A stretch of DNA of 64,000 nucleotides from Gemmatales bacterium (GTDB taxonomy: Bacteria; Planctomycetota; Planctomycetia; Gemmatales; HRBIN36), in NCBI GenBank assembly GCA_041640595.1, contig JBEPZY010000002.1:532651-596650 (forward strand), written 5' to 3'. The notes below the pieces were generated by a model. That model made no database searches, was not told where the DNA came from, and was given only the letters and a program-made list of their open reading frames with translations. Positions within the stretch are counted from its first letter, which is position 1. Each line of letters begins with the position of its first letter. Positions 51,220-55,178 of the stretch are shown piece by piece. The position numbers and the translations under genes were made by a program.

Positions 51220-51630
51220 GTCCGCTTCTCCTGATGGCTTCCAGAAAGGCTAGATTTCGGTGCTCATGACGCACCTTCTTTTGCGGCAACGCTTCAGACG
51301 AGAATCGCCCAGCAGCGATTCCTGTTCGGTCTCCTTCCTGGCAAACATTATGGCAACTGCCAATGCGATCGGCAAAATTAACCGCCGCGACCCTTAGGCT
51401 GACGAGTGCTAATTTCCCGACCTGTGAGCGTCTCGCTCTGGCCCATAAGCAGCCATTTGTTCCTGACGTGCATTGAAATCCTGGCGATTGCTTATGCTCG
51501 CAGACTTGCCGACCAGTTCACCAGCTAATCGTACCGCGTTACCCCGACGGTTTCGCATCCGCTAAAATCTTTTCTGCCCCTGGACGAGATCCCGAATGCC
51601 CTGGTGAGGCCTTTTATGGTTTCGCGTTCA

Positions 51631-51680
51631 CAAAAAATTTTTTCGCCCCTCTTGACGCTTCCCTGGCCGCCGGATAAGCT
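51631..51680 (+). promoter_or_regulatory. Sigma70-type promoter with UP-like A/T tract
   Basis: TTGACG (51652-57), 17-bp spacer, TAAGCT (51675-80), preceded by CAAAAAATTTTTT. Confidence 0.65.
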
Positions 51681-51692
51681 ACCTGTAGCGGG

Positions 51693-51729
51693 ATAGAGTT
51701 GAGGAGGACAAACCGGAATAGAGTTGAGG
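51693..51729 (+). repeat. 12-bp direct repeat ATAGAGTTGAGG, period 25
   Basis: Exact copies at 51693-51704 and 51718-51729, just downstream of the predicted transcription start. Confidence 0.75.
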
Positions 51730-51782
51730 CGCGGCGGAACCAGTACCATTTCTCAGGGGTCTTTCCAGAAAGGAGGTGTGTC

Positions 51783-51949
51783 ATGCGGAAGCTGAAGACA
51801 CACACACACACAGGGGTATTTTGCGCTCTGCTTTAGACCTGTGTGTGGGCTGGCTGCACCGTCCGGCCAGGTCTCGTCCACGTCAGCCTGAACCCGCCCG
51901 ATTGCAGTTCGACTTGTTGGAGGACAGAACCGTGAAATGGGTGCCATAG
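51783..51949 (+). pseudogene. Frameshifted, internally deleted remnant of a LEDR-leader (planctomycete extracellular) protein gene
   Basis: AGGAGGT RBS and ATG 51783; stops at TAG 51834 as written; removing one CA gives MRKLKTHTHRGILRSALDLCVGWLHRPARSRPRQPEPARLQFDLLEDRTVKWVP*. Confidence 0.6.
51798..51812 (+). repeat. (CA)7 dinucleotide microsatellite five codons after a start codon
   Basis: ACACACACACACACA; no comparable tract was noticed elsewhere in the window. Confidence 0.9.
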
Positions 51950-51984
51950 GTCAAACTGCGGGGGCAGAATAGGAGGAGATCAAC

Positions 51985-52458
51985 ATGCGATATCTGGCCG
52001 TGATCCTAACTCTTGCACTAAGCATCCCGTTACTTGCTTGCCTTGGGCAGGATAGACGCACCGAACAGGAGCAAAAACTCCTTCGCCGGCTACAAGGGCT
52101 ATGGCGTTTGACGGAAGCGGCGGGGAAAAGACCCGACGGTAAAGTCGACAAGACCGCTTTCGCCAAAGGGCCAATCTGGATGATTCACAAGAACTTTCTG
52201 TACTTTCATGATGACTATGGCAATCCACGCTCCATTCGGCTCGAAATTGACGCCTCGAGCGAACCTGTCAGGGTGGACCTGATCGAGCAGCCAGACTTAG
52301 AAAAACCGGCGTTTTGTCTGCTAGGCATTCTTTCGCTGGAGAAAGACCGACTATACATATGCTATCATCATAAATTGCGCCCTCAGAGCTTCGACCTGAA
52401 GGATGAGGCTGACTTCACCCGAATGTGGATTTTCGAGAGATTCAAAGAGCAGGATTAG
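51985..52458 (+). CDS. TIGR03067-like domain protein, predicted lipoprotein
   Basis: LQGLW...IDASSEP..VD...GI.SLEKD.L.IC...RPQSF...FER; lipobox LLAC; RBS AGGAGG. Confidence 0.8.
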   Translation: MRYLAVILTLALSIPLLACLGQDRRTEQEQKLLRRLQGLWRLTEAAGKRPDGKVDKTAFAKGPIWMIHKNFLYFHDDYGNPRSIRLEIDASSEPVRVDLIEQPDLEKPAFCLLGILSLEKDRLYICYHHKLRPQSFDLKDEADFTRMWIFERFKEQD

Positions 52459-52700
52459 TTGAATGCCACACATGAGTGGGGAAAGACTGCCTGAACTGCA
52501 ATTCGATCAACAACGCGTGTTTCGAGACGTGGGCCCATCGGGATATCCCTGTCCGGTTTTAGCCGGACTTAGAAAGAGCGAGTTGTCAGGCCACGGAGGC
52601 ACTGGGACCGTCAGCCGATCAAATCGGTGAAGTCAATGCTGCTCATGAAAAGAATCAGCATTTCTGATCACCGTCGGGCCAAGTGTGGGAGGAGATAGCT

Positions 52701-53162
52701 ATGCTGACTACGTGCTGGGCCATCTGCTGGCTTGCGGAGCTGACCTTGGCGCGGTTGGATCCGATTAGGAGTAAGTACTACACAGACCTGCAATTGATGC
52801 AGGGCGAATGGGAGTTAGTAACTATGGAACCCGAGTTTCAGAAGGAGCTGTTTAAGGGGATGCGCCTGACCGTCAAGGGGAACACAATGATCAGCCGGTT
52901 CGGCAGAGGTACTTCAAAGAGAGAGATAGAGTTCCGCTTTATCCTCAGGCCGCAACTTTCGCCCAAGGGAATAGACTCCTTTGACCCCGATCAGCGCGAC
53001 TCGCCGCCAGGCGTGGCCATTTACGAAGTCACCGAACATCTCCTGATAATCCTCGACCATGCAAAGGTCGGGGAGGGTCGGCCAAAGGATTTCTCTTTTC
53101 CCGACCCAGATGACAATGATTACTACTTTTACTGCTTGATGGTCTTTCGCCGGGTGAAATGA
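52701..53162 (+). CDS. TIGR03067-like domain protein
   Basis: MQGEW...LTVKGN...SPKGID...AIYEV...RPKDF...VFRRVK; hydrophobic N-terminus; RBS GGAGG. Confidence 0.8.
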   Translation: MLTTCWAICWLAELTLARLDPIRSKYYTDLQLMQGEWELVTMEPEFQKELFKGMRLTVKGNTMISRFGRGTSKREIEFRFILRPQLSPKGIDSFDPDQRDSPPGVAIYEVTEHLLIILDHAKVGEGRPKDFSFPDPDDNDYYFYCLMVFRRVK

Positions 53163-53277
53163 AGCTGCGGCCCAGGAAAGGTGATGCTGCTAAGCTGCTA
53201 CAGGGGCAGCAAGAGTTGGCAAGACACGACTGCTTGTACGAACCCTGAGCCGTGAACTAGGTGCATGCTGTAAACGC

Positions 53278-53968
53278 ATGGCAGAATCAGTAACCAGGGT
53301 CTATTCGTCGGAATTGGCCGGACCGCCTACGCGCCTCGAACTCCCGAGAGCGGGCGAAGTGGACGCCAACGGGGAAGCCGTGATTCGCGGAACGATTCAA
53401 CCGCACGGTGCCGACGAAGCTACGCAGTATTACCTGCCGCGTTTCCGTGCTTGGGATGATGCCGGCTCGAACGCGCTGTCGCCGTTCGTACAGCTCGCCG
53501 CCACGGATTTCAAAGTGAGTGACGGTGGTCTCCATACGGCCGGTCGGTACATTTCGCACGGCCTCGGACGGAGCCGTCTTGCTCAAGGAGGGAGACACGC
53601 TCAGCTTCGACGTCTGGATTGGGGGTGTTGGCGGCGGTGGCTCCATGCCTGGCTGGGACGGTAATATTCGGTGGGGAGTATTTGACGATGACCCGGGATA
53701 CGACGACCTTATCAAGGACTACTCTTCCGTAACACCCGATCTGTTGGCTCATCCGAATCCGACAGGTGCCTGGCAGGTTAATGCAGGGACTTTTACGCTT
53801 CGAGCGAGCCGCGGTGAGATTTATGGGGACGCAGGGGTCGGGTTAGGTGTCGGCTGGAAAGGCGATATTGAAGTCTATGTTCATATCTGGTGGTACTGCA
53901 ACTGTCCTTGTTGCTGGGGCGGGTACGACTACAGATCGTATATAGTTCGCGTGAGGTATGAGCCCTAG
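53278..53968 (+). pseudogene. Orphan C-terminal module of a secreted protein, frameshifted by a 4-bp duplication
   Basis: ORFs 53278.. and 53519..53968 join in frame (…DFKV-TVVSIR…) if one GTGA of GTGAGTGA (53515-53522) is removed; no RBS or signal peptide. Confidence 0.6.
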
Positions 53969-54018
53969 AGTTAGAACTCGCTGCTTGCGATCGGTGGCAA
54001 CGGGCGGAGGGACTAAGC

Positions 54019-54495
54019 ATGAGCTCGAAAGTAAGGCTATTAGCTATTCGAGCCATCAAGATTTCGATGGTAGTCTTGCCCTTATGTCTTGTTGTTTTCG
54101 TCCTGGGAAGGGTGGAGCGATACCAGGCTATCCAAGGTAAATGGCAACTGGTCGAAGTACGCGGCAAGAGTGGCGACGAAATTTTGACGAGGCCAGGACC
54201 ACAGGGGACAGGTTTTTGGATCGTCGGCAACTGGATAAAGCCGTATGGCCACGGCTGCGAGGAGTGGGGACTGGGAGCTTTGCTGGTTTTGCACGGTAAC
54301 CCAAACGAGCAATGTTGCGACGGCCATATCGTATTCCCGCACTTGCTGGGAATCTATAGTACGCCAACCCTACTGGCTTTCGAGAACGATAAACTGCTCA
54401 TCGGCATTCGCGGGGGCGGACAACATCCGAGAACATTAGATTTGCAAAATGCGCCGGACGGCACCAGAATATGGGTACTAAAGCGTGATCGCTAG
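54019..54495 (+). CDS. Divergent TIGR03067-like domain protein
   Basis: N-terminal TM/signal; IQGKWQLV...FENDKLLI...HPRTL...WVLKR; RBS GGAGG. Confidence 0.65.
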   Translation: MSSKVRLLAIRAIKISMVVLPLCLVVFVLGRVERYQAIQGKWQLVEVRGKSGDEILTRPGPQGTGFWIVGNWIKPYGHGCEEWGLGALLVLHGNPNEQCCDGHIVFPHLLGIYSTPTLLAFENDKLLIGIRGGGQHPRTLDLQNAPDGTRIWVLKRDR

Positions 54496-54602
54496 TAACC
54501 TTGTCGAATATAGTGCTTAGCGCAGAAGGCTTGCCTAAACTGGGCCGGGAGCGGCGGTGTTGCAGCAGCCCGGGCGGTGGGAACGGATGCGAGGGGTGGT
54601 GG

Positions 54603-55178
54603 TCACGGCTGGGCGAGGGTGGCGGCGCGTTGCTGAACGAGCTGGCTGAAGCTTTTGAATTCTGGAGAACCCGCTTGACGGAGCCATTCAAAGCCTACCG
54701 TTTCAACAGTGGTCAGGATAGCGCCAAGGCGTTCGAGTCGGCGTAAGGCGGTTTCGTGGTCTACGGCAAAACGCGAAGCCACGGCGTCAACGGGCAGATG
54801 TACCTGGAATCCCTCCGTGAGCAAATCGAGCACGGTTTGCAATACGCACACATGGGTTTCGATGCCGAGGACAACAATCTGACGACAATCCTGCTGGCGA
54901 AAGCTGGCGACGATCTGGGGCAGGGCACAACAGCTGAAGTCGAGCTTCTCGGGTCGCGTGGGCAAAAGTTCGGCCAGTTCGGAAACAGTAGGCCCGAGGC
55001 CTTTCGGATACTGTTCGGTGGCCTGCACGGGTATTTGCAGGAGCTGAGCCACCTGGAGGAGGAATCGGATATTGTTCACCAAGCGCTGGTTGTTCGGGAT
55101 CAGCCGAATTAGCTTTTCCTGGACGTCCACCACGAGCACGCCGCTACGCTTACGGTCGAGAAGAGTCGGGTGGGGCAT
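54603..55178 (-). CDS. Isochorismatase-family hydrolase (YcaC/ISOC-like)
   Basis: VVDVQEKL, TEQYPKGLG.TV, K..FSC and GIETHVCV.QT. Confidence 0.92.
   Translation of the reverse strand: MPHPTLLDRKRSGVLVVDVQEKLIRLIPNNQRLVNNIRFLLQVAQLLQIPVQATEQYPKGLGPTVSELAELLPTRPEKLDFSCCALPQIVASFRQQDCRQIVVLGIETHVCVLQTVLDLLTEGFQVHLPVDAVASRFAVDHETALRRLERLGAILTTVETVGFEWLRQAGSPEFKSFSQLVQQRAATLAQP

Follow-up and report, generated by a model that had tools for sequence, protein, structure and literature searches.

A CA-dinucleotide tract ahead of a LEDR-type leader in a hot-spring planctomycete: a likely slipped-strand switch of a polymorphic surface-protein family

Start codon, tract and reading frames

The window analysed here is a stretch of 64,000 nt from a Gemmatales bacterium (HRBIN36; contig JBEPZY010000002.1, positions 532,651-596,650 of the forward strand), and its genome of 4.45 Mb is referred to below as G000. 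The features of the locus are collected in Table 1. A preliminary description of this DNA had read most of its start region correctly: the AGGAGGT sequence and the ATG at 51783 that it serves, the (CA)7 tract, the stop after 17 residues in the ATG frame and the off-frame LEDR peptide ARLQFDLLEDRTV, which sits in the -1 frame. The GTG at 51776, raised there as a caveat, is likewise present, overlaps the Shine-Dalgarno (SD) sequence and opens a 57-aa ORF in the LEDR frame, in which a second GTG, at 51845, lies as well. What had been overlooked is that the LEDR frame itself ends four residues past LEDRTV, as KWVP*, at 51949. Consequently, the window allele carries no passenger and, even when ON, would yield just 54 aa.

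Table 1. Features of the tract, leader and downstream array in the window (positions of the 64,000-nt stretch).
Feature	Position	Strand	Remarks
Candidate promoter: A/T run, TTGACG, 17 nt, TAAGCT	51632..51680	+	putative, picked by eye
Shine-Dalgarno sequence AGGAGGT	51771..51777	+	read in the sequence; AGAAAGGAGGTGTGTCATG kept in G003:C41 ortholog
GTGTGTC, complementary to GACACAC 51797-51803 (tract start)	51776..51782	+	paired in RNA and DNA folds
17-aa OFF-frame product of the SD-linked ATG 51783	51783..51836	+	MRKLKTHTHTGVFCALL*
A(CA)7 tract ACACACACACACACA, 15 nt	51798..51812	+	9 and 17 nt in other strains; 13 nt implied by P0030
Leader, -1 frame: Trp-containing hydrophobic stretch, Arg-rich linker, LQFDLLEDRTV (51902-51934)	51813..51934	+	
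CCTGTGTGTG, complementary to 51805-51814 (tract end)	51838..51847	+	RNA and DNA folds
Putative deletion joint: Val of LEDRTV fused to passenger end VKWVP*	51932..51949	+	488 codons missing relative to P0082
Partner gene 1, TIGR03067-like, hydrophobic N-terminus	51985..52458	+	39.9 bits (cut-off 40.15); 40.4 bits in a second search
Partner gene 2, TIGR03067-like	52683..53162	+	alternative allele joins at 53137
Orphan tip cassette: stalk junction and alternative tip	53278..53968	+	two frames here; single 256-codon frame in L003
Gene paired with the orphan cassette, remotely related to the TIGR03067-like partners	54019..54495	+	no family match

The tract is exceptional for its genome. Namely, it is the second-longest AC run in G000, only one AC/GT run in the 4.45 Mb exceeds 15 nt, and from the counts of 6-10 nt runs a geometric fit gives an expectation of 0.004 for runs that reach 15 nt. 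The top three AC runs of the genome (21, 15 and 13 nt) all lie within leaders of the window type. Elsewhere, the sole long TA tract of the genome, a 15-nt run, lies between CG repeats (G000:C13:19330). Further upstream in the window, the 5' untranslated region contains a 12-nt direct repeat, ATAGAGTTGAGG (51694-51729), of which the G003 ortholog has one related copy. The candidate promoter found no match in a consensus promoter scan; by eye, a similar arrangement, an A/T run and then TTGAC or TTGAG, can be seen ahead of the paralogous leaders.

Tract length among strains and related leaders

Eight runs were compared as contigs, seven of which bridge the tract (X11, which does not, was left out). 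A 15-nt tract is bridged without gaps in six of the eight, namely X2, X3, X4, X5, X12 (an RNA run, which contains solely this form) and X15; X2 is a possible source run of the window assembly, and the other five are not so marked. In X13 the tract is 9 nt long, at a depth of 27 of 27. A scan of metagenomes returned two matches, L003 with a tract of 15 nt and L004 with one of 17 nt, and the ortholog in G003, whose flanks differ, has 12 nt. One could argue that the repeat was simply miscounted in assembly, as the preliminary description had feared: repeats are prone to mis-assembly, and the two in-frame alleles P0030 and P0083 are known as protein only. However, 15 nt is found in X3, X4, X5, X12, X15 and L003 alike, which contradicts this doubt and makes a miscount barely conceivable.

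The DNA alleles of the same locus with 9, 15 and 17 nt (and the 12 nt of G003) are all out of frame. The in-frame state is represented by P0030, a natural protein of 551 aa that reads MRKLKTHTHRGIL...LEDRTVPSC; its sequence implies a tract of 13 nt, (CA)6, one of the two lengths that had been predicted to bring LEDR into frame. What is more, P0083 is an in-frame 54-aa version of the short allele, in which A replaces the first T of the tract. These in-frame alleles come from database proteins and not from DNA, and a protein search favours in-frame alleles. Invariance of the tract had been proposed earlier as the test of switching, and its outcome is divided: lengths do differ among strains (9/15/17 nt), but each of the seven bridging runs holds a single one, in contigs, which drop rare variants. 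Strains that differ at approximately 1-2% of sites have the same 15-nt OFF allele, so that switching may be slow, and possibly slow phase variation is also what one would expect from the intact mutS and mutL of the genome.

The search for paralogous leaders with variable tracts, suggested earlier, was rewarded within G000 itself, where four further ATG-(CA)n-leader loci have tracts of 21, 13, 10 and 9 nt; two of them have strong SD sequences and two degenerate ones. Three such loci are found in G003 and one in G002. None of the 10 DNA loci is in frame from its SD-linked ATG, with four at -1 and six at +1, i.e. there is no single fixed shift; at G003:C415 a second ATG, 5 nt ahead of the tract, is in frame. 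Six in-frame proteins (P0030, P0083, P0010, P0043, P0045 and P0084), spanning three of the four CA leader families, join the pre-tract peptide to the leader, a count that leaves aside P0085, whose frame is compensated, and P0046. The latter has a leader of the C2/C8 family, and an internal duplication around its tract restores the frame.

Would the conclusions be different if translation started at one of the GTG codons in the LEDR frame (51776 or 51845), the tract merely encoding a His-Thr repeat? Both GTGs do lie in that frame, and gene callers picked such codons for P0029, P0040 and P0041. That said, GTG 51776 overlaps the SD and has no SD of its own, it is out of frame at a tract length of 17 nt (L004, with an intact passenger), and the in-frame database proteins P0030 and P0010 start at the SD-linked ATG. 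Moreover, the pre-tract peptide of P0010, AFLNRCVS, agrees with what the out-of-frame homologues of P0010 encode in their ATG frames, and this speaks for initiation at the ATG. A GTG start therefore appears very improbable.

Long tracts are restricted to a subset of leaders. In G000, the LEDR pattern matches 29 times; in 26 cases the preceding 170 nt contain no CA run longer than 7 nt, and the other three are tract leaders. CA runs are at most 6 nt in all 16 additional leader matches. One of these 16, however, represents a fifth leader family, which has (TC)7 at the same position after the SD-linked ATG, again out of frame, with GAGAG directly 3' of it (L083, G003:C332). The copy of this family in G002 (L073, G002:C60), likewise out of frame, has only a short tract, and the one in G001 (L068, G001:C356) has lost the ATG. 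As for the nature of the leader, a profile trained on 25 leaders of the genome that lack tracts retrieved the window leader at E=0.0055 from a set of 86,378 targets; everything that ranked higher was either a training sequence or one of the tract family. By the curated models, on the other hand, the check proposed earlier turned out negative: Planc_extracel (PF07595) matched neither the 57-aa frame nor P0030 and gave P0010 11.8 bits against a cut-off of 25.5, and the NCBIfam leader models did not match the window-type leader. We infer that this leader works like an LxLExLExRxxP leader, without being a member of that family by curated score.

The distribution of the locus is narrow. Its named homologues belong to 'bacterium HR36' and a 'Gemmatales bacterium', and its DNA was found in hot-spring or mat metagenomes. 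A blastn search of 51301-54700 against its own genome returned the self match only, a DNA search in 41 relatives a single short match, in G003, and in G001 and G002 other genes adjoin the neighbouring oxidoreductase. An order-wide pattern search (267 genomes) found tract-bearing leaders in G000, G002 and G003, together with 15 matches in 14 other genomes as compared to 10 in a reversed control, judged from the first bases. At the level of the phylum (401 genomes) the pattern stayed at control level, which is a weak test since it recovered just one of the five own loci.

The passenger, its tips and the neighbouring array

In intact alleles, the passenger is a protein with an Ig stalk and exchangeable Ig-like tips, and TIGR03067-like partner genes come after it; tips of at least four kinds sit on near-identical stalks here (P0030, P0082, P0001 and L004). 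P0082, which begins LQFDLLEDRTVPSC, finishes with FYVKWVP; by comparison of the two sequences, the VKWVP* of the window is probably the passenger ending of a P0082-type allele, fused at the Val codon by an in-frame deletion of 488 codons. Indeed, in five of the eight runs (X3, X4, X5, X13 and X15) an alternative path departs at 51934 and reads CCCAGCTGC, that is, LEDRTV-PSC. In L004 this path is a 523-codon frame with a He_PIG domain, followed by a TIGR03067-like gene, and the same samples contain both short and long alleles. In other words, the window carries a shortened, derived allele that lost its passenger between two Val codons and has retained the switch and the partner genes. The string GTGAAATG occurs at the deletion joint (51932-51939) and again where the second partner gene ends (53155-53162). 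Further downstream, the tail of another TIGR03067-like gene joins at 53137 and, in several runs, a different continuation leaves at 53174; junctions of this kind indicate that the array is actively reshuffled.

A structural model of a homologous tip (pLDDT 89) is all-beta; the structures that it resembles are generic Ig-like sandwiches (best Z 8.9, rmsd 2.9, 111 aligned), with no enzyme fold among them, and Pfam gave no toxin domain in the tip at the window locus. An Atlas search with the tip gave leads that were all below 0.9, and a search for it on longer proteins returned four, each from the same family. The order of the genes fits cognate immunity; no immunity family in Pfam or NCBIfam matched the partners at the window locus. 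These partners look exported and lipocalin-like, the matches of a partner model to lipocalin-like barrels being weak (E>0.001), and a predicted complex of the tip with a TIGR03067 partner scored 0.17 (mark 0.32). A conserved stalk, variable C-terminal tips and orphan cassettes, by which polymorphic toxins are recognized, are all found here. Given an Ig-like tip with no enzyme match, we speak of a polymorphic surface protein at the window locus and not of a proven toxin.

The paralogous loci are more explicit in this respect. Four arrays in G000 (L035, L036, L037 and L038; C2, C3 and C8) combine LEDR leaders, orphan cassettes and diverse partner genes, with He_PIG or Big_9 stalks. One array has RNAse_A_bac followed by CdiI_2 and another CDI_toxin_EC869_like, so that domains of CdiA-type antibacterial toxins are found at two paralogous loci. 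As these toxin arrays lie behind the same switch, we regard the family preferably as a set of switchable proteins for competition or recognition.

Many genes of the arrays are broken by further frameshifts or stops, and one could regard the tract as no more than a mutation hot spot in dying toxin or adhesin arrays, its lengths being fixed strain differences with no switching role. The absence of a passenger from the window allele, the further damage to several arrays and the lack of a within-run mixture would all agree with such neutral decay. However, tracts are found solely between the ATG and the leader of these genes, and this in four families with CA and one with TC; intact frames of 500-800 codons follow out-of-frame tracts (L004, G000 C8); and in-frame alleles persist. 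We therefore consider neutral decay quite unlikely.

The proposed switch and its relation to known systems

The locus shows several of the features by which phase variation is generally recognized, namely a short-unit repeat between the start codon and a functional coding region, variation in length by whole units, and natural alleles both in and out of frame. Since the tract varies between strains in whole 2-nt units and sets the frame between the ATG and LEDR, it is likely that we are dealing with slipped-strand phase variation, similar to that of oipA, biased to OFF and possibly slow. The CA tract would gain or lose 2-nt units by replication slippage, and its length would decide whether the SD-linked ATG reads into the LEDR leader. 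An in-frame allele would then give a polymorphic, probably surface-exposed protein, presumably exported by means of the LxxExLExRxxP leader. Switching would be reversible within a lineage, with ON cells a minority. The idea of a contingency switch for a surface protein, put forward in the preliminary description, is thus strengthened by P0030, P0083, the 2-nt variation and the paralogous tracts. It is qualified in that the window allele itself encodes no surface protein, the leader misses the Planc_extracel cut-off, and no within-run switching was seen in the seven bridging runs.

A further feature of the leaders bears on how slippage might come about. All 10 aligned leaders have an invariant GTGTG upstream of the tract, a motif that the window family leaves untranslated and that the other families read in differing frames. 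Of the 40 CA runs of at least 9 nt in G000, those with GTGTGT or TGTGTG in the preceding 25 nt number five and are exactly those of the five leaders (background 0.4%), which, being homologous, are not independent cases. The motif pairs with the tract in eight of eight minimum-energy folds, with modest z-scores (-0.04 to -2.76); folded as DNA, the window segment reaches a z-score of -3.2, and the fold of the TC-tract leader is no better than shuffles (-0.32). The complementarity of CCTGTGTGTG to the tract end may, for its part, stem from its Cys/Val/Trp codons. We hypothesize that GTGTG acts in slippage of DNA or of RNA polymerase.

Taken to its extreme, this hypothesis would place the switch in transcription: upstream GUGUGU would pair with the nascent CA repeat, RNA polymerase would realign by 2 nt, and the length of the DNA would tune output and not gate it. 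The exclusive association of the motif with the five leaders, its variable reading frame, its consistent pairing and the dominance of OFF alleles with intact passengers in X3 and X13 all speak for this possibility. There is also a precedent in the nascent stem-loop of the Roseiflexus IS630 element (PMC5009743), which shares the inverted repeat immediately 5' of the slippery run. In the available part of that source, however, the documented case is a T5C5 homopolymer pair in invariant DNA, and not a dinucleotide repeat, whereas here the stem uses the repeat itself and the DNA varies in length. What is more, the leaders are not independent, the z-scores are modest, the DNA alleles occur in all three frames, and the RNA run X12 has 15 nt only. 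Transcriptional slippage as the main mechanism is, in our estimate, unlikely, and we retain slipped-strand variation of the DNA as the preferred reading. More speculatively, a hot-spring genus might keep a polymorphic toxin or recognition family on a hairpin-coupled dinucleotide switch, in which GTGTG raises DNA and/or RNA-polymerase slippage, most cells are OFF and a minority arms itself, the design having arisen at least twice (CA and TC); we offer this broader picture tentatively and consider it less probable than not.

Of the systems to which the locus can be compared, polymorphic toxins (PMC3482391; Neisseria MafB, PMC4287609; in the accessible portions of both) share the conserved N-terminal stalk and a C-terminal tip that varies, with a small gene directly behind each tip, as well as orphan cassettes, and RNase A/CdiI_2 and EC869-like domains are present at the paralogous loci. 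In contrast, for the tip at the window locus an Ig-like sandwich is predicted and no enzyme was matched; the partners are exported-looking and lipocalin-like. The terms 'phase variation' and 'slippage' have no match in the first 300,000 characters of PMC3482391 (Zhang et al. 2012), and no report of repeat-switched polymorphic toxins was found in the open-access literature (titles and abstract openings) or in the accessible portions of PMC3482391, PMC3711429 and PMC4287609.

The leader, in turn, resembles that of the Planc_extracel family in that LQFDLLEDRTVP of the intact alleles lies in the N-terminal part, between an Arg-rich stretch and Ig-like repeats. It differs in scoring below the Pfam cut-off, in having F and D for the consensus L and E, and, in the window allele, in lacking the final Pro. 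For the LxLExLExRxxP motif of Tuwongella, a role as export signal is only proposed (PMC8567305, available excerpt), and the natural ON/OFF pairs described here provide material for testing the planctomycete LEDR leader in this capacity. An out-of-frame tract is also the reason why such genes get annotated without their leaders.

The closest parallel is oipA of Helicobacter pylori, with its CT-dinucleotide phase variation within the region coding for the signal peptide (PMC10564699, available excerpt). In both cases a 5' coding dinucleotide tract sets the frame of an export signal and a surface protein, and ON and OFF alleles occur among strains. The differences are that our host is a free-living hot-spring planctomycete with intact mutS and mutL, that the unit is CA, that the leader is a planctomycete one and not a Sec signal peptide, that a GTGTG complement lies beside each CA tract, and that we compare alleles between strains and not clonal switching. 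In this sense the mechanism is known and the setting is new, the planctomycete case having no earlier report that we found in the open-access literature (titles and abstract openings), in line with what the preliminary description had surmised.

Dinucleotide contingency switches have mainly been described in host-dependent pathogens. Long simple repeats tend to go with a lifestyle dependent on eukaryotic hosts (PMC4060949, available excerpt), whereas here the switch is found in a free-living thermophilic planctomycete, ahead of arrays of polymorphic surface proteins and antibacterial toxins, which suggests bet-hedging in microbial competition or in phage or kin recognition.
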